DNA of 64,000 nt from Staphylococcus phage Twort. The position numbers and the translations under genes are program-made. The DNA lies in the sequence record NC_007021.1; one strand, written 5' to 3'. Positions 14,434-62,563 of this stretch are shown piece by piece (position 1 is the stretch's first letter; each line of letters opens with the position of its first letter). The notes under the pieces are model-generated. The model did no database searches. It saw only the letters and a program-made list of their open reading frames with translations, and had not been told where the DNA came from.

Positions 14434-16197
14434 ATGGCAAAAGATATATTTCCACGTAGACCTATCCAACGTCCCCATGCTTCAATCGAAGTAGATTCAT
14501 CTGGTATTGGTGGTTCAGCTAGTAACAGTGAAAAAATTCTATGTTTGATTGGTAAAGCAGAGGGCGGGGAGCCTAATACAGTCTACCAAGTACGAAATTA
14601 TGCACAAGCTAAATCAGTATTTCGTTCTGGTGAATTACTAGATGCAATTGAGTTAGCTTGGGGTTCTAACCCACAATACACAGCAGGTAAAATCCTAGCT
14701 ATGCGTGTAGAAGATGCTAAAGCATCTCAGTTAGAAAAAGGTGGACTAAGAGTAACGTCTAAAATCTTTGGTTCCGTATCTAATGACATTCAAGTAGCAT
14801 TAGAAAAAAATACAATCACAGATTCTTTACGTTTACGAGTTGTTTTCCAAAAAGATAATTATCAAGAAGTATTTGACAACTTAGGTAACATCTTCTCTAT
14901 TAACTATAAAGGTGAAGGTGAAAAAGCTACGTTCTCAGTAGAGAAAGATAAAGAAACACAAGAGGCAAAACGTTTAGTATTAAAAGTAGATGAAAAAGAA
15001 GTTAAAGCCTATGAACTAAATGGTGGTGCTTACTCTTTCACTAATGAAATCATCACTGACATTAACGAATTACCTGACTTTGAGGCAAAATTATCACCAT
15101 TTGGAGATAAAAACCTTGAGTCACGTAAGTTAGATGAGGCTACAGATGTAGATATTAAAGGTAAAGCTGTTTATGTTAAAGCCGTATTTGGTGACATTGA
15201 GAACCAAACTCAATATAACCAATATGTTAAGTTCGAACAGTTACCTGAACAAGCATCAGAACCTAGTGATGTTGAGGTACATGCTGAAACTGAATCGGCT
15301 ACGGTGACAGCTACATCTAAACCTAAAGCAATTGAACCGTTCGAATTAACTAAACTTTCTGGAGGTACTAATGGTGAACCACCAACATCTTGGTCAGCTA
15401 AGCTAGAGAAGTTTAAAAATGAAGGTGGATACTATATCGTACCTTTAACTGACCGTCAATCAGTACATTCAGAGGTAGCAACATTTGTTAAGAATCGTTC
15501 TGATGCAGGAGAGCCTATGCGTGCTATTGTAGGTGGGGGTACTTCTGAAACTAAAGAAAAGTTATTTGGACGACAAGCTATTTTAAACAACCCTCGTGTT
15601 GCTTTAGTAGCTAACTCTGGTAAGTTTGTTATGGGTAATGGTCGCATCTTACAAGCACCTGCTTACATGGTAGCTAGTGCTGTCGCAGGTTTAGTTAGTG
15701 GATTAGATATTGGTGAGTCAATCACGTTTAAACCATTATTTGTTAACAGCTTAGACAAAGTTTACGAATCAGAGGAATTAGATGAACTTAATGAAAATGG
15801 TATTATTACTATTGAGTTTGTCCGTAACCGTATGACTACAATGTTCCGTATTGTAGATGATGTTACAACATTCCCTGATAAGAATGACCCTGTTAAGTCA
15901 GAAATGGCTTTAGGGGAAGCAAATGACTTCTTAGTAAGTGAGCTTAAAATCTTACTTGAAGAACAATATATTGGTACACGAACTATCAATACAAGTGCTT
16001 CACAAATTAAAGACTTTGTTCAATCTTATTTAGGACGTAAGAAACGTGATAATGAAATTCAAGATTTCCCACCTGAAGATGTTCAAGTAATTATTGAAGG
16101 TAATGAAGCTAGAATTAGTTTAACTATCTTCCCAATTAGAGCTCTTAAGAAAATTTCAGTATCACTTGTTTATAGACAACAAACATTACAAGCCTAA
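14434..16197 (+). CDS. tail sheath protein
   Basis: 587-aa ORF with strong RBS AAGGAGA, followed by the tail-tube gene; codon usage of a highly expressed gene. Confidence 0.85.
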   Translation: MAKDIFPRRPIQRPHASIEVDSSGIGGSASNSEKILCLIGKAEGGEPNTVYQVRNYAQAKSVFRSGELLDAIELAWGSNPQYTAGKILAMRVEDAKASQLEKGGLRVTSKIFGSVSNDIQVALEKNTITDSLRLRVVFQKDNYQEVFDNLGNIFSINYKGEGEKATFSVEKDKETQEAKRLVLKVDEKEVKAYELNGGAYSFTNEIITDINELPDFEAKLSPFGDKNLESRKLDEATDVDIKGKAVYVKAVFGDIENQTQYNQYVKFEQLPEQASEPSDVEVHAETESATVTATSKPKAIEPFELTKLSGGTNGEPPTSWSAKLEKFKNEGGYYIVPLTDRQSVHSEVATFVKNRSDAGEPMRAIVGGGTSETKEKLFGRQAILNNPRVALVANSGKFVMGNGRILQAPAYMVASAVAGLVSGLDIGESITFKPLFVNSLDKVYESEELDELNENGIITIEFVRNRMTTMFRIVDDVTTFPDKNDPVKSEMALGEANDFLVSELKILLEEQYIGTRTINTSASQIKDFVQSYLGRKKRDNEIQDFPPEDVQVIIEGNEARISLTIFPIRALKKISVSLVYRQQTLQA

Positions 16198-16271: not shown

Positions 16272-17563
16272 ATGGCATCTCAAGCTAAACAGACAGTCCA
16301 TACTGGTAATACCGTAATGCTTATGATTAAAGGTAAACCTGTAGGTAGAGCTCAATCAGCGTCTGGTACACGTTCTTACGGTACAGAAGGGGTATATGAG
16401 ATTGGTTCTATCATGCCACAAGAACACGTTTACCTTAAGTATGAAGGTGAATTAACAGTAGAACGTCTACGAATGAAAAAAGAGAACTTTGCAAAATTAG
16501 GATATGCTTCTCTTGGTGAAGAAATCCTTAAGAAAGATATTATTGACATTGTTGTTATTGACAACTTGACTAAAGAAGTGCTTGTGTCATATCACGGTTG
16601 TAGTGCTAATAACTATGAACTTCGTAGCTTCACATAGTAATATGTGTCGAAAAACTTTTCTAAACAGGGAAGCCTAAGTCTATTAGATATGGTAATCCTG
16701 TGCTAAATCAGATTAATAATCTGTAAATGCCAAACGACTAACTGAAACCTACTTGATAATTCAAGGGGAGTAAGTGTAGAGCCAAGCGGTAGAAGTTTTA
16801 AGTAATTATTATGTAAATCTTCTTTAAATCGAAAAGAAAAGAGTCCTTTTTTAGGATTGTGATATAGTCTGAACATATATGGAAACATATAGCAGTTCCT
16901 AGAGAACGGGCAGTGAGTAGCGACCACTGTTGAACATAATGGATGAAGCATGGAACACTAATGAAATAACTACTGAAAGCATAAATAATTGTGCCTTTAT
17001 ACAGTAATGTATATCGAAAAATCCTCTAATTCAGGGAACACCTAAACAAACTAAGATGTAGGCAATCCTGAGCTAAGCTCTTAGTAATAAGAGAAAGTGC
17101 AACGACTATTCCGATAGGAAGTAGGGTCAAGTGACTCGAAATGGGGATTACCCTTCTAGGGTAGTGATATAGTCTGAACATATATGGAAACATATAGAAG
17201 GATAGGAGTAACGAACCTATTCGTAACATAATTGAACTTTTAGTTATTTATCAGCATAAAATTATCTTGTGCCTTTACACAGTAATGTGTATTGAAAACT
17301 CCTTTAATTCATGGGAAATCTTAATTAAGACAATCATGAGCCAAGCCTAGCAATAGGAAGGTGCAACGACTAGAGAAAGGGTAGCTTACTATTATAGGTA
17401 GTAAGTGAGAACCGAGTATCGTACGCTCAAGTGAGTGGAAATGGGGAGTGTCCTAGAGTAACGACTAGGATAATGATATAGTCTGAACATATATGGAAAC
17501 ATATAGAAGGATAGGAGTAACGAACCTATTCGTAACATAATTGCAGATAAAGCTTCACGATAG
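16272..17563 (+). CDS. tail tube protein gene split by three group I introns; ~139 aa when spliced
   Basis: Inferred exons: 16272-16607, 16942-16982 (41 nt), 17235-17257 (23 nt), 17544-17563. Exon 1 ORF (112 aa) follows the sheath gene. Splice sites are inferred from alignment of the intron copies, the U-before-5'SS and G-before-3'SS rules, and frame continuity (84 nt = 28 codons to TAG at 17561-17563). Confidence 0.55.
16608..16941 (+). mobile_element. Group I intron 1 of the tail-tube gene (ORF-less)
   Basis: P/Q/R/S-like core elements; 3' end ..GUUGAACAUAAUG. Confidence 0.55.
16983..17234 (+). mobile_element. Group I intron 2 of the tail-tube gene (ORF-less)
   Basis: Starts aaataattgtgcc..; R ..gcaacgacta..; 3' 75 nt identical to intron 3, ending ..cgtaacataattg. 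Confidence 0.55.
17258..17543 (+). mobile_element. Group I intron 3 of the tail-tube gene (ORF-less)
   Basis: Starts aaaattatcttgtgcc..; same conserved 3' core; ends ..cgtaacataattg. Confidence 0.55.
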
Positions 17564-17653: not shown

Positions 17654-18967
17654 ATGGATAAGAAAATATTAAAAGAAGCTAGTAGATTAGGGATAAAAAT
17701 TATTAAAGAGGATAAAATAACAAGAAATAAAACACATGTAGGAGTAATTCTTAGAGGTAAGTTTAAAGGGTGTGAATGCCATGTATCTTACGAATATTTA
17801 AAAAACAAGAATAATAACACAGAATTTGTAATTACCATTTTAACTGATAGAGGTAAGAAACAGTATTTTAATAAAGTAGCAGAAGAAAGGGGATATAAAA
17901 TACTAGAATACCCCAAAGAGTTACTAACGGTAAATAGATGTAAACTTTTATCACCCAAAGGTAATACATGGGATGTACAATGGAACTCCTTTGAAAACAA
18001 TAGGAACAGTAACTGCCCTAAAGATAAATTAAAAAGCATAGGAGAGAGAATAGTAGCAACTATATTAAGAGAAAATAATATAGATTTCACCTCTGAAAAA
18101 GGTATATATACGGGTCTTAAAGTTAGACAGAGGTTAGATTTCTATTTCATAATAGGAGGACAAAAATACGCAATAGAATACATGGGTAGACAACACACAG
18201 AAGAAGTAAAAGGAGGATGGGGAGTATCACTAGACAGAATTATATTTTTAGATAAATTAAAAGAAGAGTATTGTCGAAGTAATGGAATTAAATTACTACA
18301 GGTGTGGTACCCTATGGAAGATAAGGAAAGTATATTCACAGAAATAAAAGAATTTTTAGACATACCTTTAAAATATACCCCCGAAGTAGATTATATATCT
18401 AGGCTAAATGACAACGAAGAAGAAATTTTAGAATACTACAAAAACCATTCTGCAGAGGAAACATCAAACAAATACGGGATTACTATTAACCAAGTTAAAG
18501 GAATATTAAATAGGACTAAATTTACGAAAAGATTTAAAAGTGTGGAAGGTATTAATATTAAGTCAGGTGAAAAGTTACAGTTTAATACTTTAAAAGAAGC
18601 ACAAGAATACTTTAAAGATAGTAAAGGTGTGGACACTATAAGGGCATGCGTAATAGGAAAAAGAAAAACAGCATGTGGGTATATATGGAGATACAAAGAC
18701 GAAGATTTTTCAGAATTATCTACAAAAATAACAGATAAGAGAATAAAAGTATTTAAGGCAATAAAAGGGAGTGAAGTAATAACACTTCCATTACAAATGT
18801 TATCTATAAAGACAGGGCTTGCTATACAAACAATTACTAAATTAGCAAGAAATAAAGGAAAAACAAGCAAAGGATATGAAATTATAGAAGTAACAGGAGA
18901 AGAGAAAGGAGAGATTTTGGATAGTATAAGTTTTGTAGACTATGTGCAAAGTTTAAATAAAAAGTAA
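17654..18967 (+). CDS. Free-standing homing-endonuclease-like protein: Vsr/DUF559-type PD-(D/E)XK nuclease domain plus C-terminal helix-turn-helix DNA-binding module
   Basis: Central segment ..RLDFYFIIGGQKYAIEYMGRQH..CRSNGIKLLQVWY.. is paralogous to the C-terminus of the 200-1165 intron ORF. C-terminal ..GKRKTACGYIWRY.. is an IENR/NUMOD-like DNA-binding motif found in phage homing endonucleases. Confidence 0.6.
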   Translation: MDKKILKEASRLGIKIIKEDKITRNKTHVGVILRGKFKGCECHVSYEYLKNKNNNTEFVITILTDRGKKQYFNKVAEERGYKILEYPKELLTVNRCKLLSPKGNTWDVQWNSFENNRNSNCPKDKLKSIGERIVATILRENNIDFTSEKGIYTGLKVRQRLDFYFIIGGQKYAIEYMGRQHTEEVKGGWGVSLDRIIFLDKLKEEYCRSNGIKLLQVWYPMEDKESIFTEIKEFLDIPLKYTPEVDYISRLNDNEEEILEYYKNHSAEETSNKYGITINQVKGILNRTKFTKRFKSVEGINIKSGEKLQFNTLKEAQEYFKDSKGVDTIRACVIGKRKTACGYIWRYKDEDFSELSTKITDKRIKVFKAIKGSEVITLPLQMLSIKTGLAIQTITKLARNKGKTSKGYEIIEVTGEEKGEILDSISFVDYVQSLNKK

Positions 18968-53610: not shown

Positions 53611-54672
53611 ATGAGATTCCAAGACTTTTTAACGCAAGAACTAGGAACACCTAAAATAAATAATGGGGAGTATCAGTACTGCTGTCCTTTCTGTGGTGAA
53701 CAAAAGTATAAGTTCTATGTAAAAGACTCTTTACAATCCGATAACGGATTGTATCACTGTAAGAAGTGTGATGCTACAGGAAACCCGATTACATTTATGA
53801 AAGGCTATTATTCTGTATCTGCAAAACAAGCTATAGACTTATTAGAAACTAAAAATATAACTTTTGAGATAAGCCCATTAGATAACTACAGTAATGAACT
53901 TTCAGAATCAGATAAACTTATACTACACCTAAGAAAAAAGAATCATAAACAGGAAACAAGACCAACAAAACCCCCTAGATTACCTATAGGATTTAAATAC
54001 TTAAAGGATAACTTACAAAATAAGGAATCATATCCATTCCTATACTACTTAAAAAACAGGGGAATTACACTTGACCAAATTATAGAACATAACATAGCTT
54101 ATGTAACAGATGGTTACTTTTATAAAACAAATGGGGAAAAAGCATCGTTAAGAAATAGTGTTATCTTTTTCACGTATGATAATAATGGTAAATATAAGTA
54201 TTGGAATACTCGTAGTATAGAACCTAATCCTTACTTAAAATCTATTAATGCACCTTCTAAAGAACAAGAATATGCAAGGAAAAATTGTATCTTTAATTTT
54301 AATGTTGCTAGAAATGAAAGGGTAATGATTATAACTGAAGGTGTTTTCGATGCTCTTACGTTTGGTAAATCAGGTGTTGCTACTTTTGGTAAACAAGTAA
54401 CACAATCACAATTAGACCAAATTATACAACATACAAATAAAGATACTATTATATATATTATGTTAGATAGTGATGCATTAACTAACAATATTAAGTTAGC
54501 TAGAAGATTACATGAGCATTTTACTACGTTTGTTGTTCCACATGGTGTAGAAGATGCAAATGATATGGGTAAAGAAAAAGCTGTTAAAGTACTTAAAGAA
54601 AATAGAATTTTAGCAACACCAGAAAACTTACAAAATTACTTATTACAACAAAAATTAACATTTAATGCTTGA
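53611..54672 (+). CDS. DNA primase (zinc finger + TOPRIM)
   Basis: CPFCGEQ..x17..CKKCD zinc finger; TOPRIM ..ITEGVFDAL.. and ..MLDSDA.. Confidence 0.7.
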   Translation: MRFQDFLTQELGTPKINNGEYQYCCPFCGEQKYKFYVKDSLQSDNGLYHCKKCDATGNPITFMKGYYSVSAKQAIDLLETKNITFEISPLDNYSNELSESDKLILHLRKKNHKQETRPTKPPRLPIGFKYLKDNLQNKESYPFLYYLKNRGITLDQIIEHNIAYVTDGYFYKTNGEKASLRNSVIFFTYDNNGKYKYWNTRSIEPNPYLKSINAPSKEQEYARKNCIFNFNVARNERVMIITEGVFDALTFGKSGVATFGKQVTQSQLDQIIQHTNKDTIIYIMLDSDALTNNIKLARRLHEHFTTFVVPHGVEDANDMGKEKAVKVLKENRILATPENLQNYLLQQKLTFNA

Positions 54673-54726
54673 TTTAACATAAAATTTATGGTACAATAAT
54701 GAAAGACAAGTGAAGGAGGTCTATCT

Positions 54727-55035
54727 TTGGAAAAGAAAAGTATTTATACATTTGTAGATGAATACTTAATTTTAGAATCTACAAAAAATAAAGAAAAGCT
54801 AGAACAGTTAGAAGAAGAAGGTAACAGATTAACTGCTACATACACAGATGTAGCAAAGGCAATTACTAACTTAACTTACGGTATTAATGAGCAATTAACT
54901 GATGTACATAGTATGGTAGCATCCTTATTATCCATTTTAGTAGAGGCTATGTACGAGGAAAAGGTTATTGACCAAAAAGTATTAGACAAAATTGAAGAAT
55001 ATCAAAATAAATTATATGAAAAGGAAGATGAATAA
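54727..55035 (+). CDS. hypothetical protein
   Basis: TTG start with RBS AAGGAGG. Confidence 0.45.
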   Translation: MEKKSIYTFVDEYLILESTKNKEKLEQLEEEGNRLTATYTDVAKAITNLTYGINEQLTDVHSMVASLLSILVEAMYEEKVIDQKVLDKIEEYQNKLYEKEDE

Positions 55036-55466
55036 TGGAAAAAACTGTATCAACTCATGCTAAGGATATTTCGACTAATGATTTAAATAAATGGTTAGAG
55101 GCTGTTACTACTAACCGTCTTAATGGTAAAGAGATTGGAGAAAAAGAAACTAAAGAGTTACAACGTTTAGGTAATCGTGCTGTATCTTTAGAAGTAGCTA
55201 CACGTATTGCTATGTCTTTAGCAGAACACGAAGTACAAAATGTAGCATCACGTTTATTACAATCCGTAGACCTTATTCAACAAATTATGGAAGATGAATT
55301 AGGTATTGATGAAGAAAAACTTAATAAAGCGGTAGCTAAATTAAATGATAAGTATGAGGCTTACATTAAAGAGCAACAAGAAAAAATTAAAGAAGCACAA
55401 AAAAAGGAAGTAGAAACAGACAGTAATGAGAAAGTCGTTTCTATGAAACCTAAAAATGAGCAGTAA
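55035..55466 (+). CDS. hypothetical protein
   Basis: 143-aa ORF. Confidence 0.45.
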   Translation: MEKTVSTHAKDISTNDLNKWLEAVTTNRLNGKEIGEKETKELQRLGNRAVSLEVATRIAMSLAEHEVQNVASRLLQSVDLIQQIMEDELGIDEEKLNKAVAKLNDKYEAYIKEQQEKIKEAQKKEVETDSNEKVVSMKPKNEQ

Positions 55467-56055
55467 AAGTAAAGGTGATACATTCGAAAGAAAAATAGCT
55501 AAAGCACTAGGTGAGTGGTGGGGTTATAAATTTAACCGTACACCACAATCTGGTGGAGCTAGTTGGGGAGCTCAAAATAATGCAGTAGGGGATATTGTAA
55601 CACCTCCTGACGCTGAGTTTCCTTTAGTTATAGAATGTAAGCATAGAGAAAATTGGAACATGGATAATGTATTACTTAATAACAAAGAGCCTCACACATG
55701 GTGGCAACAAGTTATTAGAGATTCAGAGCATGTAGGTAAAGTGCCCTGTCTTATTTTTACTAGAAATAGAGCAAGGGATTATGTTGCATTACCTTATATA
55801 GAATCTGTATATAATGACCTTAGAGATAAAGATTATCCCGTTATGAGAACAAGTTTTATTACTACTAATCTTAAAGAAGAAAAGTTTTATTATGATGTCG
55901 TTATAACTACTATTGAAGGGTTGACCCATTTCAAACCTTGCTATATTAAATCTTGCTACAACGAATTTAAGGTAGAACCTTACAAAACAACGTCTAAAAA
56001 AACTATAACTAAAGATGAAAACAGTTTAATAGATGATATTTTAGATAATATATAA
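55456..56055 (+). CDS. Holliday-junction-resolvase-like PD-(D/E)XK nuclease
   Basis: Motifs ..GDTFERKIAKAL.., ..GDIV.., ..LVIECKHRE.. resemble Hjc/RecU-type resolvases. Confidence 0.45.
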   Translation: MSSKSKGDTFERKIAKALGEWWGYKFNRTPQSGGASWGAQNNAVGDIVTPPDAEFPLVIECKHRENWNMDNVLLNNKEPHTWWQQVIRDSEHVGKVPCLIFTRNRARDYVALPYIESVYNDLRDKDYPVMRTSFITTNLKEEKFYYDVVITTIEGLTHFKPCYIKSCYNEFKVEPYKTTSKKTITKDENSLIDDILDNI

Positions 56056-56070
56056 CAAGGACTGATATGA

Positions 56071-56463
56071 ATGACAAAAGAGGAAAGACCCATAATTGTA
56101 TACTACAGTGGTACAGGACAAACTAAAAGATTAGTAGATAAAATTAATAATGATTCATTTGAGGTAATGAGAATGAAAACAGGCAATGAGATAGTAGAGC
56201 AACCTTACATTCTTATTACCCCTACTTATATGAAAGGTGAAATTCCTAAACAAGTACAAAAATTTATTAGTAATAATCATGCACCTAAAGAAGTTATTGG
56301 CACAGGAAATAAACAGTGGGGAGAACACTTTTGCGGTGCAAGTAAAAAAATAGCTGAAATGTTTAGTATACCTCTTGTTGCTAAGATTGAACAAGCAGGT
56401 CATTTTAATGAAGTAAATACTATTAAAGAGTATTTTACAACAGAATACAAAGTTAGTTATTAG
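56071..56463 (+). CDS. nrdI: NrdI flavodoxin-like protein
   Basis: ..IVYYSGTGQTKRLV.. flavodoxin motif; immediately upstream of nrdE. Confidence 0.8.
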   Translation: MTKEERPIIVYYSGTGQTKRLVDKINNDSFEVMRMKTGNEIVEQPYILITPTYMKGEIPKQVQKFISNNHAPKEVIGTGNKQWGEHFCGASKKIAEMFSIPLVAKIEQAGHFNEVNTIKEYFTTEYKVSY

Positions 56464-56473
56464 AGGTGAAAAG

Positions 56474-57193
56474 ATGGCAACTTATGGTAAGTGGATTGAC
56501 CTTAATAATGAGGTCACTCAACTAGACGAAAATGGAAAAAATAAACTCTATAAGGACAAAGAAGCCTTAGAAGAGTACTCAAAATATATTGAAAAGAATA
56601 CACGTAATTTTGATAATGAAGTAGAGCGTGTACGTACCTTAACTAAAGAGGGTACTTATGATAAGGTGTTTGATAGTATTCCTGATACTATTATTGAAGA
56701 AATGACAAAGTTAGCTTATAGTTTTAACTTTCAATTTCAGAGCTTTATGGCATGTCAAAAGTTCTATGAATCATATGCTGTGACACAGTATGATAAAGAT
56801 GATAATCCTATTTTTGTAGAAGATTATGAACAACATAATGTACGTGTTGCGCTTTATTTATTTCAAGACGATTATGTTAAAGCTAGAGAAATGTTAATTC
56901 AATTAATGGAACAGACATTACAGCCCGCTACACCAGTATATCTTAACTCAGGGTTAGGTAAACGTGGTGAATTGTCATCTTGTTATTTATTTATTGTAGA
57001 TGATACTATCGAATCTATTAACTTTATTACAGACTCCGTACGACAAGCATCTAAAAATGCAGGAGGTTGTGCAGTAGACTTAACAAGATTACGCCCTAGA
57101 GGAACAGAGGTTAATGGTGTTCCTAATGCTAGTAAGGGTGTAATACCATTTGCAAAAAATATCGAGCAGAGCGTATCATATTTCAACCAGGGT
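56474..57193 (+). CDS. nrdE: Ribonucleotide reductase class Ib alpha subunit, exon 1
   Basis: Ends ..SYFNQG at a U; splicing to 57623 gives ..FNQGGKREGSAVCYL.. Confidence 0.75.
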
Positions 57194-57622
57194 AAACAAT
57201 TCTGCCCCCTATATTAGTAATAGTGTAGGTTAAAAAACTTCCTTAATTCATGGGAAATCTCCTTGACTTTTATTATAAATTTTGGTATAGTAAAATGAGA
57301 AGGAGATAATCATGAGCAAGATAACCAATAGCAAAGAAACCCAAAAAAGTACCTAACGCTACTAAAAGTATTTACCACCATATAAAAAGTAAAAGAAGAT
57401 GGAAGTCATTAAATCACTTAATGAATTGGTAATTATCTTGTGCAACGACTAGAGAAAAGATAGTTTATTGTTACAGGCAGTAAATGAAGACTGAGTATCG
57501 TACACTCAAGTGAGTGGAAACAGGAAGTATCCTAGAGTAACGACTAGGATAATGATATAGTCTGAACATTGTAGGTGACTACAAGAAGGTAAGGAGTAAC
57601 GAACCTTATCGTAACATAATTG
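57194..57622 (+). mobile_element. Group I intron 1 of nrdE (ORF-less)
   Basis: P ..aattcatgggaaatc..; R ..gcaacgactag..; S tgatatagtc; ends ..cgtaacataattg; 5' region matches tail-tube intron 3. Confidence 0.65.
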
Positions 57623-58648
57623 GGAAAACGTGAAGGCTCTGCAGTATGTTATTTAAATATATTCCACCCAGATATTCATGAATTTTTAAGTTCTAAAAAA
57701 ATTAATGCTAGTGATAAAGTAAGATTAGACACATTATCTATTGGTGTAACAATACCAAATAAGTTTATGGAATTACTTAAAGAAGATAAATACTACTATA
57801 CATTTAATGTATATGATGTTAAACAAAAATATGGGTTTACATTAAATGAAATAAACATGTCCGAGTATTATGATATATTTGTGAATGATGATGATATTAG
57901 AAAAGAAAAATATTATACAAGAGATATAATGACTGACATTGCAAGAACACAACTAGAGTCAGGATACCCTTATGTTTTCTACATTGATAACGCAAATGAC
58001 AATCACCCTTTGAAGAAACTAGGTAAAGTTCAAATGTCTAATTTATGCTGTGAGGTGACACAGCTACAAGAAGTATCCGACATATTCCCATATTTACAAT
58101 CACATAATGATACTATTGGGAATGATGTTGTGTGTACGTTAGGTTCATTAAATTTAGTGAATGTTGTAGAAAAAGGATTGCTTAAAGAATCCGTAGATAG
58201 TGGTATTCGTTCGTTATCTAAAGTAACGGATTTAATGAACGTTCCATTTTTACCAAGTGTTCAGAAGGCAAACGATGAGCTACGAGCTATAGGTCTTGGA
58301 GCAATGAACTGGCATGGACTTCTAGCAAAGAATATGCTTAGTTATGGTTCTAGGGAATCTCTAGACATTGCTAATAGTTTATTTAGTGCTATTAGATACT
58401 ACTCTATTAAGTCTAGTATGGAACTAGCTAAAGAAACTGGTAAAGTTTTTAAAGGTTTTAAAGAATCAGAATACTATACTGGAGAAGTGTTTAGTTCATA
58501 TATTCAAAAGTCACATGAACCTAGAACTAAAAAAGCTAAAAAAGTACTAGAAAAGGTATATATCCCTACGGAAGAAGACTGGAACTCTTTAAGCAAAGAT
58601 GTAAAAGAGTATGGTATGTACAACGGATACTTAAATAATCTTGCACCT
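57623..58648 (+). CDS. nrdE: Ribonucleotide reductase alpha subunit, exon 2
   Basis: GKREGSAVCYLNIFHPDIHEFL (active-site loop) ... ends ..NNLAP. Confidence 0.75.
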
Positions 58649-59735
58649 TATATATTAGGGCGTGTATAAGAATACATGATAACTCTTTCGAATTGCTGGA
58701 ACACCCTTAGAGCCTAATAAACTACAACGTAACTAGAAATGGTAAGCGTGAATGTTTAAAAATTATTGGGATTGGGCAATCAGCATCTAAGATTCTAAAT
58801 AATTATAATTAAAATAAAGTGTAACAAAGGAAGATATATTATAGAGGAGTTATGGAAAGAAATACCTGGGTTTAATTCATACATGATTAGTAATAAAGGT
58901 CAGGTTTACTCAAGAAAAAGAAATAAGATACTAGCTTTACGAACAGATAAAAATGGGTATAAAAGAATATCTATTTTTAACAATGAAGGTAAAAGAATTC
59001 TATTAGGAGTTCATAAGTTAGTTCTCTTAGGTTTTAAAGGTATTAATACTGAAAAGCCTATACCTCACCATAAGAATAATATTAAAGATGATAACAGATT
59101 AGAAAATTTGGAATGGGTTACAGTTAGTGAAAATACCAAGCATGCATATGATATAGGGGCTTTAAAATCACCTAGGAGAGTTACATGTACTCTTTATTAT
59201 AAAGGAGAACCTTTATCATGCTATGACTCGTTGTTTGACTTAGCTAAGGCTTTAAAAGTAAGTAGAAGTGTAATAGAGAGTCCTAGAAATGGTTTGGTGT
59301 TATCTACTTTTGAAGTAAAAAGAGAACCTACAATACAAGGACTACCTTTAAATAAAGAGATATTTGAGCATAGTTTAATTAAGGGCTTGGGTAATCCTCC
59401 TTTAAAAGTGTATAATGAAGATGAAACCTACTACTTTTTAACTTTAATGGACATAAGTAAGTACTTTAATGAATCATACTCTAAAGTACAACGAGGATAT
59501 TATAAAGGTAAGTGGAAAAGTTATATTATAGAACATATTGATTTTTATGAGTATTACAAACAAACACATTAATTATAATTACAAGAATAAAGTTCAACGA
59601 CTATCCCGTTGCTGGGAGTACACTCAAGTGAGTGGAAGTGGAAGAGGTCTTACTTAAGTAAGATGTGATATAGTCTGGACGTATATGGAAACATATAGAA
59701 GGTAAGGAGTAACGAACCTTATCGTAACATAATCG
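58649..59735 (+). mobile_element. Group I intron 2 of nrdE, carrying an HNH endonuclease ORF
   Basis: R ..caacgactatc.. at 59594; S gtgatatagtc at 59660; ends ..cgtaacataatcg; exon junction restores LAP|TQSISY. Confidence 0.65.
58838..59572 (+). CDS. Intron-encoded HNH homing endonuclease (I-HmuI-like); start uncertain (ATT/ATA ~58838-58841, or ATG 58883)
   Basis: N-terminus ..LWKEIPGFNSYMISNKGQVYS.. matches the conserved EWKDIKGYEGHYQVSNTGEVYS start of I-HmuI-type enzymes. HNH motif ..PHHKNNIKDDNRLENLEWVTVSENTKH.. . RBS AAAGGAAG at 58827-58834. Confidence 0.65.
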   Translation: MIEELWKEIPGFNSYMISNKGQVYSRKRNKILALRTDKNGYKRISIFNNEGKRILLGVHKLVLLGFKGINTEKPIPHHKNNIKDDNRLENLEWVTVSENTKHAYDIGALKSPRRVTCTLYYKGEPLSCYDSLFDLAKALKVSRSVIESPRNGLVLSTFEVKREPTIQGLPLNKEIFEHSLIKGLGNPPLKVYNEDETYYFLTLMDISKYFNESYSKVQRGYYKGKWKSYIIEHIDFYEYYKQTH

Positions 59736-60104
59736 ACACAATCCATTTCGTATGTACAAAATGCAACTTCTAGTATTATGCCAGTACCTTCACCTATTGA
59801 AAATAGACGCTATGGTAACATGGACACATACTATCCTATGCCGTTTATGTCACCAATTACACAATTTTTCTACGAGAGTGAAACAGCATATAAATTAGAT
59901 AATAAACGTATTATTAATACAAGTGCGGTGATTCAAAAACACGTAGACCAAGCTATTTCTACTATTCTTTACGTAGAGTCTGAAATACCAACTAATAAAT
60001 TAGTAAGTTTATATTATTATGCTTGGGAAAAAGGTTTAAAATCTTTATACTATACCCGTTCACAAACATTAAAAGTTATTGAGTGTGAATCTTGTAGTGT
60101 ATAA
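59736..60104 (+). CDS. nrdE: Ribonucleotide reductase alpha subunit, exon 3
   Basis: TQSISYVQNATSSIMPV.. and ..SLYYTRS.. (radical-transfer Tyr pair); C-terminal CESC. Confidence 0.75.
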   Translation, partial: TQSISYVQNATSSIMPVPSPIENRRYGNMDTYYPMPFMSPITQFFYESETAYKLDNKRIINTSAVIQKHVDQAISTILYVESEIPTNKLVSLYYYAWEKGLKSLYYTRSQTLKVIECESCSV

Positions 60105-60119
60105 GAAAGGAAATCAGTA

Positions 60120-61169
60120 ATGGAACTTAAGAGACAAGTAGATAAATACTATAAAGATAAAATTAAAAACTTAGAAGCTGTTAACTGGAACGAGGAAGAT
60201 GAAATGGCTAATAACTTTTGGGAGTTAGCCACAACTTCCTTCTGGTTACCAGAAGACTTTGATATTTCACGAGATGTAAGCTCATGGAATAAATTAACAG
60301 ATATTGAAAAAGATACTTATAAAAAAGTTTTAGCAGGTTTAACAGGGTTAGATACTAAGCAAAGTGTTGAAGGAATGTCATTAATTGCACATCATGAACC
60401 TAGAACAAGATTTGCTCAAGTATACACAGCCTTTGATTTTTATGAATCAATCCATGCTAAGTCCTATAGTCATATTTTTACTACTTTATTATTAAATAAA
60501 GAAACAAATTACTTATTAAATGAGTGGGTAGAACAAGAACCACACCTAAAGAAAAAAGCACAGTATATTGGATATTTTTATGAAAAATTAGAACAGCCTA
60601 ATCCTAGTACATTTGATAGATATATGGCTAAAGTAGCCAGTGCTTTTTTAGAAAGCGCATTATTCTATTCAGGGTTCTATTATCCTCTACTACTATCAGG
60701 TCAAGGGGTTATGGTTCAATCAGGAACTACTATCTACAAGATTACACAAGATGAGGCATATCATGGTGTAGGAGTAGGTTATACCGCACAGTTAGATTAC
60801 CAAGAACTTACAGAAGAAGAGCAGTCTAAAGCTGATGCTCTTATGTACGAATTATTAGAAGTACTATATGAAAATGAAGTATCTTACTCACATATGTTAT
60901 ATGATAAGTTAGGATTAACGGAAGATGTTATTAGATATGTTCAATATAACTTCAATAGAGCTTTAGCTAACTTAGGGTTTGATGATTACTTTAATCCAGA
61001 ACCTTTTAATCCTATTGTAAATAACCAAACTAATGTAGATAAACTTAGTAATGCAGATTTCTTTAGTACAAAAAATGATTATAAACGCTCTATGAATACT
61101 AAAGACCTTAAAGATGAAGATTTTAAGTTTGATGATAAAGAATCTACTTTAGTAGATGAATTTTTATAA
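60120..61169 (+). CDS. nrdF: Ribonucleotide reductase beta subunit
   Basis: Ferritin-like di-iron motifs ..ESIHAKSYSHIF.., ..DEAYHGV.. Confidence 0.85.
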   Translation: MELKRQVDKYYKDKIKNLEAVNWNEEDEMANNFWELATTSFWLPEDFDISRDVSSWNKLTDIEKDTYKKVLAGLTGLDTKQSVEGMSLIAHHEPRTRFAQVYTAFDFYESIHAKSYSHIFTTLLLNKETNYLLNEWVEQEPHLKKKAQYIGYFYEKLEQPNPSTFDRYMAKVASAFLESALFYSGFYYPLLLSGQGVMVQSGTTIYKITQDEAYHGVGVGYTAQLDYQELTEEEQSKADALMYELLEVLYENEVSYSHMLYDKLGLTEDVIRYVQYNFNRALANLGFDDYFNPEPFNPIVNNQTNVDKLSNADFFSTKNDYKRSMNTKDLKDEDFKFDDKESTLVDEFL

Positions 61170-61181
61170 AGGAATGATGTT

Positions 61182-61451
61182 ATGGAAAGATTAGATAGAG
61201 ATAAAGCATTAGAGATTCTTAACAAAACAAGCATTGTTTTACAAAATCAAGAAGACTTTAATGTTTCCGAAGTACGAGATGTTTATGGTGCTAAATGTGT
61301 AACTATTGGTTATGATACAGAAGATTATTTTCTTATTTATGATAACAATAAGTTAACCTTAAATTCAAAGCCTAATGATTCAGGGTTTGACAATACAGTA
61401 ACTGTAAATTCATTTGAAGATATTTTAAATACGATTGGGGAAGAAGATTAA
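61182..61451 (+). CDS. hypothetical protein
   Basis: 89-aa ORF. Confidence 0.45.
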   Translation: MERLDRDKALEILNKTSIVLQNQEDFNVSEVRDVYGAKCVTIGYDTEDYFLIYDNNKLTLNSKPNDSGFDNTVTVNSFEDILNTIGEED

Positions 61452-61452
61452 T

Positions 61453-61761
61453 ATGGAAGAAGTAAAAAGTTTATTAGACTTAAATGTACAAGTAAGACAA
61501 AAGAAAGATGCTATTGCGTTATTGACACAAAATAATTGTGGTAAATGTGAAATCTTAAAACAGGTCATTCCACATTTAAACTTAGCTAAACCGTTATTTG
61601 TTTTAAACTTAGATGGTAAGGATGCTGACCGTGAACAAATTATTAACCACTTTGACCTTATGTCTACGCCAGTACTTGTAGGATATAAAGATGGGGAACT
61701 AGTTAAGAAGTTTGAAGATGATGTTACACCACAACAATTACAAGAACTAGAAGATTTATAA
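61453..61761 (+). CDS. thioredoxin/glutaredoxin-like protein (CGKC)
   Basis: Redox CxxC motif; ATG 61453 with RBS GGGAAGAAG preferred over the upstream TTG. Confidence 0.55.
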   Translation: MEEVKSLLDLNVQVRQKKDAIALLTQNNCGKCEILKQVIPHLNLAKPLFVLNLDGKDADREQIINHFDLMSTPVLVGYKDGELVKKFEDDVTPQQLQELEDL

Positions 61762-61840
61762 TTTTGGGTTACCGCTACTTTATGTTATACTAAGGTAGCG
61801 GGTTTGTTTAGGGGTCTACTAAACAAAGGAATGATTAATT

Positions 61841-62563
61841 TTGGCAAAGAATAAGACTTTAACTATTTATAATAGTGATAGGTACTTTAATATACATACT
61901 AAAAAGAAGTCAGAATTAGATGCTATTAAAGTACTTTCTTACAATGAAAAATCTTTAGAAAATATTATGGACGATTTAGAATCAAAATCCTCTAGATATG
62001 TTATGAGAGATGACAGACACTACTTATTATTTAATGAAAAATATAATAATGATAAGTTAATAGAAAAAATCATTAAACATGGTGGTAAAGTAACGTATTA
62101 CACAGATACTGTTGTACCTTACTATGTATTTAAAGATTTAGCTAAACACCAAGATTCTACAGTAGTATATCGTATGCGTAAAGATTTTACTGATAAAGAA
62201 ATAGATAATATAGCTTTATCTTTTATGGGTACTAAAGTTGTTGTAGATATTTCTGTTGTACTCCCTAATGTAAACCCCTATGAAATTATTAGACAGCTAC
62301 ATAGTGTTAAAACCAATGTTGATGAAGTACATTTAAGTTTCCCTAGACTTAAAGATGTATCAGATAAACAGAAAAAGTTTTATGACTTTGATGGTGAGGC
62401 ATATACTATGAAACCAGAATATAAAGTAGATTTTGCTGATAGATTACGAGTATCTTTATCAGTATGGAAGATGTACATTTATATATTAACAGATGCTAGA
62501 GACCATAAAGGCGTACAGAAGGTTATAGATAAGATAAAGAAACATAGGAAAGTTAAGATATAA
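61841..62563 (+). CDS. hypothetical protein
   Basis: TTG start with AAGGAATGATTAATT upstream. Confidence 0.45.
   Translation: MAKNKTLTIYNSDRYFNIHTKKKSELDAIKVLSYNEKSLENIMDDLESKSSRYVMRDDRHYLLFNEKYNNDKLIEKIIKHGGKVTYYTDTVVPYYVFKDLAKHQDSTVVYRMRKDFTDKEIDNIALSFMGTKVVVDISVVLPNVNPYEIIRQLHSVKTNVDEVHLSFPRLKDVSDKQKKFYDFDGEAYTMKPEYKVDFADRLRVSLSVWKMYIYILTDARDHKGVQKVIDKIKKHRKVKI

Follow-up and report, generated by a model that had tools for sequence, protein, structure and literature searches.

Two group I introns in the nrdE gene of Staphylococcus phage Twort: the I-TwoI intron and a companion with an apparently decayed endonuclease gene

How can a gene that lies in a phage genome as three separate open reading frames (ORFs) give rise to a single protein? 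The question is raised by nrdE, the gene for the alpha subunit of a class Ib ribonucleotide reductase (RNR), at positions 56474-60104 of a 64,000-nucleotide (nt) stretch of the genome of Staphylococcus phage Twort (NC_007021.1). This whole stretch is called the window here, and all positions are counted from its first letter. A preliminary description, made from the letters of the window, had proposed that the gene reads through two group I introns, the second of them carrying an HNH endonuclease. The ORF list of positions 54500-62500 holds the three pieces at exactly the coordinates given there, together with an ATG-started frame between the second and the third (lengths in amino acids, aa):

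56474-57217, + strand: nrdE ORF piece 1, 247 aa, unspliced, stop at 57217
57620-58669, + strand: nrdE ORF piece 2, 349 aa, TTG-started
58883-59572, + strand: ATG-started ORF between pieces 2 and 3, 229 aa
59778-60104, + strand: nrdE ORF piece 3, 108 aa

It can be regarded as practically certain that two self-splicing introns of group I interrupt nrdE, with the exons of the gene joined in frame into a NrdE of 704 aa. The joined exons make up 2115 nt with no internal stop, which bears out the protein length first proposed, and the spacers removed are 57194-57622 (429 nt) and 58649-59735 (1087 nt):

56474-57193, + strand: nrdE exon 1 (aa 1-240), ending in CAG GGT, its last base being the U of the P1 U.G pair
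57623-58648, + strand: nrdE exon 2 (aa 241-582), starting GGA AAA CGT and ending in GCA CCT
59736-60104, + strand: nrdE exon 3 (aa 583-704 and stop), starting ACA CAA TCC (TQS)

Across the junctions, marked by a slash here and below, the product reads FNQG/GKREGSAVCYL (aa 240/241) and LAP/TQSISYVQNATSSIMP (aa 582/583), as had been quoted from the translations. It aligns from end to end, gap-free at both junctions, with the NrdE of Bacillus subtilis (6cgl, E 1.3e-167) and of Salmonella (1pem, E 1.1e-148), these two NrdE entries being its best structural relatives; at sequence level such an end-to-end match is far beyond chance. The NrdE motifs follow one another on the consecutive pieces, with SSCYL (168-172) in exon 1, the active-site motifs SNLCCEV (379-385) and VVCTLGS (409-415) in exon 2, and the YY pair in SLYYTR (685-690) and the C-terminal cysteines CESCSV (699-704) in exon 3. 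The Pfam domains RNR_N, Ribonuc_red_lgN (all-alpha) and Ribonuc_red_lgC (barrel), the catalytic Cys/Asn/Cys/Glu/Cys set, the YY pair, the C-terminal cysteine pair and the nrdI and nrdF neighbours are those of a class Ib RNR alpha subunit. Positions 56474-60104 are the class Ib gene nrdE within an nrdI-nrdE-nrdF operon, since NrdI precedes and NrdF follows it:

56071-56463, + strand: nrdI, flavodoxin-like, upstream operon gene (Pfam Flavodoxin_NdrI, E 2.3e-26)
60120-61169, + strand: nrdF, RNR small subunit, downstream operon partner (Pfam Ribonuc_red_sm, E 2.8e-66)

Site 1 (NQG/GKR) lies in what we take to be the specificity 'loop 2', and site 2 (AP/TQSIS) presumably in the substrate-phosphate-binding motif. 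Dwivedi et al. place the Twort introns close to functionally important conserved residues (PMC3653736), and the uninterrupted NrdE of Kayvirus is likewise 704 aa long (PMC5618024).

The locus is a textbook example of several self-splicing introns in one phage gene, and the main value of its analysis is as a check of correctness, with exact coordinates, annotation corrections and comparative notes on endonuclease decay as useful outputs. The abstract of Landthaler, Begley, Lau & Shub 2002 (NAR 30:1935) reportedly gives a length of 429 nt for intron 1, with which the sequence of the window agrees. A two-intron nrdE with I-TwoI has been described before (Landthaler et al. 2002; AF485080), as the preliminary description had thought probable. 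Window 56340-60162 shows 99.6% identity over 100% of the query to GenBank AF485080.1 (megablast, phage collection), entitled 'Staphylococcus phage Twort nrdE and HNH endonuclease I-TwoI', in which nrdE is annotated as a join of three pieces and I-TwoI has a coding sequence (CDS) and a ribosome-binding site of its own. When the junctions of the window are moved onto AF485080, the result is a 705-aa protein that is letter for letter AAM00816.1 (exact look-up), and the window junctions are therefore the published ones. The Twort nrdE-I1 and nrdE-I2 of that record represent the same locus: the junctions are shared, intron 2 has 1087 nt there as well, and its 243-aa I-TwoI is identical. Moreover, a Twort nrdE intron is independently tabulated as 1087 nt with a 243-aa I-TwoI in PMC1995217, lengths that agree with window 58649-59735 and 58841-59572.

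The two spacers can be drawn as group I introns with the following predicted helices, all on the + strand:

57194-57622, + strand: nrdE intron 1, 429 nt, predicted group I with P7.1/P7.2, no intact ORF, terminal G 57622
Intron 1: P1 57190-57194/57203-57207; P2 57208-57216/57221-57229; P3 57237-57243/57522-57528; P4 57248-57253/57310-57315
Intron 1: P5 57258-57264/57300-57306; P6 57318-57324/57433-57439; P7 57447-57451/57558-57562; P7.1 57464-57470/57478-57484
Intron 1: P7.2 57503-57507/57512-57516; P8 57530-57535/57544-57549; P9 57569-57574/57579-57584; P9.1 57588-57594/57604-57610
58649-59735, + strand: nrdE intron 2, 1087 nt, predicted group I with P7.1/P7.2, terminal G 59735
Intron 2: P1 58646-58650/58656-58660; P2 58662-58667/58672-58677; P3 58683-58689/59640-59646; P4 58695-58699/58780-58784
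Intron 2: P6 58792-58796/59584-59588; P6a 58800-58812/59569-59581; P7 59599-59603/59671-59675; P7.1 59604-59607/59614-59617
Intron 2: P7.2 59621-59625/59630-59634; P8 59648-59653/59658-59663; P9 59682-59687/59692-59697; P9.1 59701-59707/59717-59723

In both introns the helices P1 to P9.1 appear in the canonical order, the P3/P7 pseudoknot included, with a U.G pair of P1 at the 5' splice site (GGGU/A with UGCCC in intron 1, CCU/UA with UAGGG in intron 2) and with G57622 and G59735 as omega-G, the sole positions that retain both the reading frame and colinearity. A narrow search against Rfam RF00028 matches intron 1 to the full model (57184-57585, E 6.8e-11), and the alignment sets U57193 on the splice-site U of the model. 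Both introns carry the P7.1/P7.2 insertion between P7 and P3', a trait of subgroup IA2-like phage introns, and they are IA2-like by this feature only. The exon frame runs into a stop 8 codons inside intron 1 and 7 inside intron 2, in keeping with a pattern noted for phage introns (PMC3984707).

Covariation was scored in an alignment of seven ORF-trimmed introns, namely nrdE-I1 and its homologue in phage pSco-10, nrdE-I2 and its homologues in the metagenomic Twort-like phage L006 (Logan contig SRR8132903_1903, of a public sequencing run) and in an SPbeta-like phage, and introns orf142-I2 and orf142-I3 from another gene of the window. The helices scored were P3, P4, P7, P7.2, P8, P9 and P9.1, with P3 and P7 as the pseudoknot and with P5 and P6 excluded; between intron types MAFFT misaligns P1/P2 together with part of P4 and P8's 3' strand, and these helices were checked sequence by sequence. 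Paired cells amount to 97.8%, versus 34-50% in slid controls, and compensatory double changes are seen in half of the pairs (21/42), including 6/7 pairs of P3. The observed value was reached by none of 500 shuffles on four of the five measures, and by 2/500 on the count of further pair types. P7 is invariant among the seven introns and hence uninformative in this respect, and P7.2 covaries. As far as can be read from their sequences, both spacers are group I introns with a covarying core, in line with what had been proposed for them, and self-splicing of both is reported, citing Landthaler 2002, in a passage of PMC3653736.

The endonuclease of the second intron is I-TwoI, as the preliminary description had supposed:

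58841-59572, + strand: I-TwoI, 243-aa HNH homing endonuclease, P6a loop of intron 2 (AF485080 annotation)

The exact 243-aa sequence is found as AAX92347.1, YP_238598.1 and QIW89140.1. Its ORF sits in the loop closed by P6 and the 13-base-pair P6a, with the stop codon within the 3' strand of P6a. Pfam recognizes NUMOD4 (PF07463, 49.7 bits against a cut-off of 23.4, E 4.2e-13) and HNH_3 (PF13392, 35.5 bits against 24.8, E 7.9e-9), the protein matches the PHROG 59 HNH endonucleases (E 3.4e-42), and residues 5-110 align with I-HmuI (1u3e, E 4.2e-14) across HHKNN...DDNRLENLEW. At sequence level I-TwoI is thus classed as a NUMOD4/HNH endonuclease of the I-HmuI type: it shares the N-terminal NUMOD4 and HNH nuclease module with that enzyme of the SPO1 DNA polymerase intron (PDB 1U3E), whereas in the C-terminal DNA-binding half no similarity is detectable. 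Strand-specific nicking is reported for the two enzymes, of the template strand by I-HmuI and of the coding strand by I-TwoI, each cut lying 5' of the place where the intron is inserted (PMC3428280). The phage collection holds no close relative of I-TwoI, the best match (33% identity) being the HNH protein of the nrdE2 intron of the SPbeta-like phage. All three GenBank records annotate as its start a non-canonical ATA at 58841, about 10 nt after AGGA (58828-58831, the annotated ribosome-binding site); an ATT at 58838 is also in frame, and the first in-frame ATG (58883) would cut off the WKEIPGF motif of NUMOD4. No promoter-like site was found upstream of the gene in a consensus scan of 55900-61400. 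Near the annotated start, a strong GAGGAG Shine-Dalgarno sequence (58844-58849, + strand) is followed two bases on by an ATG (58852) in another frame than I-TwoI. This ATG begins an ORF of only 7 codons, MERNTWV and stop (58852-58875, + strand), which overlaps the putative non-AUG initiation region.

Some observations weigh against this account of the locus. Neither nrdE intron is reported by Rfam, at the gathering threshold over the whole window or at E<=10 over 56900-60200, and the narrow match of intron 1, at 46.7 bits, falls just short of the Rfam gathering score (50). Intron 2 yielded no convincing P10 pairing (that of intron 1, drawn by eye, has 4 base pairs, GGAA/UUCU), and the frame of I-TwoI contains no ATG, GTG or TTG that would retain the N-terminal WKEIPGF motif. 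The failure of Rfam is attributed to the large P6 insertions, of 110 nt in intron 1 and roughly 800 nt in intron 2, and an RF00028 score of 54.4 bits, higher than the gathering score, is obtained for the ORF-less L006 homologue of intron 2.

Related phages offer natural alleles of both sites. L006 has no intron at site 1, where it reads ...TTCAATCAGGGA/GGAAAACGT... (YFNQGGKR), with a synonymous A instead of the U required for P1 as the only change among the ten bases that surround the junction. Its intron 2 is 385 nt long, without an endonuclease ORF, and over the stretches covering the ribozyme parts of this intron and the neighbouring exons the contig matches the window at 90-95% identity. 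In turn, pSco-10 is intron-less at site 2 (EAP/TQSISYVQNA). The junctions are therefore confirmed, independently of any annotation, by the intron-less alleles of L006 at site 1 and of pSco-10 at site 2. L006 (4741-5976, 6001-8500) also carries between nrdI and nrdE a free-standing gene for a 411-aa RRXRR/HNH protein that is not present in the window.

Occupied sites are equally informative. A distant blastn search with intron 1 found the site-1 introns of pSco-10, 184DA, vB_SauM_EW1-9 and PG-2021_35, which share with Twort an identical insertion site (CAGGGT/GG...) and a homologous ribozyme (~76% identity). They are ~980 nt long and contain an intact HNH gene of ~222 aa, whereas the Twort copy lacks ~550 bp. 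At site 2, the nrdE2 intron of the SPbeta-like phage (NC_029119; L004 3294-4458) has the same insertion site as Twort, GCACCT/ACACAATC (LAP or IAP/TQS), and a ribozyme homologous to intron 2 with compensatory changes in P3, P8 and P9.1. It differs in an extra hairpin after P9, in the divergence of its HNH ORF from I-TwoI and in its host, a temperate staphylococcal phage that also has an insertion, in frame, in its nrdE.

The missing part of the Twort site-1 intron is best seen in the following features:

57312-57432, + strand: apparent remnant of an HNH homing-endonuclease gene, P4'-P6 of intron 1 (tblastn with pSco10_66)
57263-57291, + strand: match to a sigma-70-like promoter (TTGACT-17-TATAGT, with TG) within the P5 extension of intron 1, a short way upstream of the remnant (consensus scan)

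The N-terminal stub MSKITNSKETQK, with its ATG at 57312 in P4', matches the first 12 residues of pSco10_66 (MSKITENKEIQK), and the C-terminal stub KVPNATKSIYHHIKSKRRWKSLNHLMNW, at 57346-57432 with its stop, matches the last 28, with 20/28 identical residues (71%, E 2e-11, tblastn) up to a common stop. Between the stubs, which are mutually out of frame in the window, ~183 central codons (~550 bp) are deleted, and the blastn match of intron 1 to the pSco-10 intron is interrupted exactly at the interior of the pSco-10 ORF. These data argue that intron 1 is a decayed mobile intron whose endonuclease gene has undergone an internal deletion, which is at most a small increment over known biology. It is unlikely, by comparison, that intron 1 never had such a gene and that the likeness to the termini of the pSco-10 HNH protein reflects conservation of the ribozyme from P4' to P6. 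The N-terminal stub does share sequence with P4' and with the 5' strand of P6, where structure imposes conservation, but most of the 28-codon C-terminal stub belongs to the P6 loop and not to the core, and its 71% protein identity persists up to the shared stop; the blastn break coincides with the ORF interior; and a like decay is seen elsewhere. L006 intron 2 keeps only the last ~14 codons of I-TwoI, and Bacillus introns are described in the notes to Table 2 of PMC2504315 as decayed in such a way that tens of bases remain at the beginning and at the end.

In the decayed intron 1 proposed here, some expression signals of the former gene may persist. TTGACT...TATACT also precedes the intact HNH gene of the pSco-10 intron, so that the match at 57263-57291 could, as a weak inference from sequence, be a relic of the endonuclease gene's own promoter; the scan of 55900-61400 gave no enrichment of such matches (27 versus 29.2 in shuffles). 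The strong Shine-Dalgarno sequence of the stub, GAAGGAGAT, and its AUG coincide with the P5' and P4' strands of the ribozyme, and the mini-ORF that follows comprises 14 codons in the window, or would be a ~39-codon in-frame fusion of the two ends of the gene if the A-run were A5. In T4, defunct I-TevIII and mobE illustrate intron mobility with the endonuclease supplied in trans. We consider it quite doubtful that the remnant is not inert, its translation or internal transcription competing with ribozyme folding and tuning nrdE splicing, or that intron 1 is mobile through an endonuclease acting in trans or, as a separate matter, that the AUA/AUU start of I-TwoI deliberately limits its expression. 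In any case, the relatives provide a compact snapshot of endonuclease gain, decay and loss within one gene, from the decayed HNH gene of intron 1 to the empty site 1 and endonuclease-less intron 2 of L006 and the site-2 intron of the SPbeta-like phage.

The most likely pathway for the expression of nrdE would start with the folding of the pre-mRNA into a group I core, with the P1 U.G wobble, the P3/P7 pseudoknot, the peripheral P7.1/P7.2 and P9.1. By the standard group I chemistry, an external guanosine would then attack the RNA after U57193 (intron 1) and U58648 (intron 2), and the freed 5' exon would attack after the terminal G (57622, 59735), yielding the in-frame 704-aa NrdE. Ribosomes entering the unspliced RNA would be halted by the stops 7-8 codons into the introns. 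Finally, the coding-strand nick that the literature ascribes to I-TwoI would promote the copying of intron 2 into intron-less nrdE alleles (homing), and intron 1 would be an element of the same type after an internal deletion of ~550 bp, with the first 12 and the last 28 HNH codons left. Within this scheme, the identity of the gene, its junctions, the ribozyme fold, the endonuclease family and the endonuclease remnant were established from the sequence, and splicing in vivo and in vitro and the nicking by I-TwoI come from the literature.

A very improbable alternative is a truly fragmented gene, in which three separate polypeptides would form a split RNR, no splicing would take place and the intervening DNA would consist of inserted free-standing endonuclease genes. 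Split RNR genes put together from fragments do occur in phages (PMC3045599), and NC_007021 lists the nrdE pieces as separate proteins (YP_238596.1). However, piece 2 opens with a TTG just three bases before the junction, the first ATG of piece 3 lies 14 codons inside conserved sequence, the junctions are codon-exact with respect to the homologues and both spacers show a covarying group I core. On the codon-exact junctions, the covarying cores and the reported splicing (PMC3653736, in the passage mentioned above) this reading was rejected. That the interruptions are inteins or group II introns is of negligible probability: RNR genes are hot spots of inteins, and the SPbeta-like nrdE appears to contain ~1.1 kb inserted in frame at aa 383, but inteins are ruled out because of the in-frame stops 7-8 codons into each insert, and neither a reverse transcriptase nor a group II match is present, the only Rfam matches being to the group I model, with boundaries at a U and a terminal G that are typical of group I; the stops and the group I core together refute this reading.

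The insertion just mentioned belongs to a third interruption site of nrdE, at the active-site motif SNLC/CE (Twort aa ~383-385), where Twort is uninterrupted. At this site pSco-10 (L002 4433-5358) has an endonuclease-containing spacer, and the ~1.1 kb insertion of the SPbeta-like phage (L004 1527-2672), in frame and annotated within one CDS, is probably an intein.

With a pair of self-splicing introns of group I as the preferred reading, several public records call for correction. AF485080 differs from the window by 14 nucleotides, and the differences that affect the protein number five: Y35D, V125E, one additional D after aa 174, L262S and Y615I (window positions 56576, 56847-56848, 56999, 57687 and 59832-59834). 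At all five the window, and not AF485080, has the residue of B. subtilis NrdE, and because of this agreement they are probably sequencing errors in the older record, of 2002. Two further differences are single-base indels at 57343 and 57398, inside the endonuclease remnant of intron 1, and at 57398 the version of the window keeps the match to pSco10_66. The whole-genome annotations of Twort were judged through their protein accessions (exact look-up). YP_238596.1, from the NC_007021-type annotation, is the unspliced ORF of exon 1 (247 aa) with an intron-encoded tail, KQFCPLY, and this annotation leaves nrdE fragmented, while QIW89139.1, from a newer Twort record, places junction 1 one codon late (FNQGK/GKREGS), so that its 705 aa include an extra K not found in homologues. 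The coordinates given here yield the homologue-consistent protein of 704 aa.

A last question concerns the distribution of this intron family in the window, which the preliminary description had extended to both late and early genes. The gene orf142 has three tandem group I introns (16606-17543, + strand; reported by Rfam at its gathering threshold over 16606-17506, with 63.6, 97.4 and 100.9 bits) separated by exons of only ~40 and 23 nt, among them orf142-I2 (16983-17234, 252 nt) and orf142-I3 (17258-17543, 286 nt); a crystal structure of the orf142-I2 ribozyme (Golden et al. 2005) is cited in a passage of PMC3984707. The orf142 product matches PHROG 985, a family of virion structural proteins (E 2.3e-64), and its gene comes directly after that of the tail sheath (14434-16197). 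Introns I2 and I3 have in common with the nrdE introns the P3-P9.1 core, P7.1/P7.2 and a nearly identical tail from P9.1 to the 3' end, with AU/UA compensatory swaps in P9.1, and the 3' half of nrdE-I1 shares 82% identity with orf142-I3. They differ in their tail-tube-like host gene, in P1/P2 and the guide sequences, and in a short P6 hairpin with no ORF or ORF remnant. A profile of the family matched only the five nrdE and orf142 introns (nhmmer). Sequence comparison thus supports a single family in a gene of nucleotide metabolism and a structural gene, and to this extent, on the 82% identity and the common alignment, the earlier claim stands, the labels late and early being only putative.

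The beginning of the window (1 to ~1220, + strand) appears to lie within a further group I intron, which splits the gene of the terminase large subunit (terL) and is unmatched both by the family profile and by Rfam. It has a J6/7-like GCCTAACGACTAA at ~90-103 and a P7' core GATATAGTCTAAAC at 1170-1183, followed by a P9-like hairpin, and the ORF that comes after it (1284-2144) corresponds to the C-terminal half of TerL (PHROG 675 positions 294-570, E 8.6e-106). The ORF inside it (197-1165, ~322 aa) matches the HNH endonucleases of PHROG 559 (1.4e-79) and also PHROG 9084, 'homing endonuclease'; the terL intron of Kayvirus encodes I-MsaI (PMC5618024). Directly 3' of orf142, a free-standing ORF of 437 aa (17654-18967, + strand) matches PHROG 7140, 'intron encoded nuclease' (E 4e-168), and is related to the terL-intron endonuclease, both matching PHROGs 559, 9084 and 4538.

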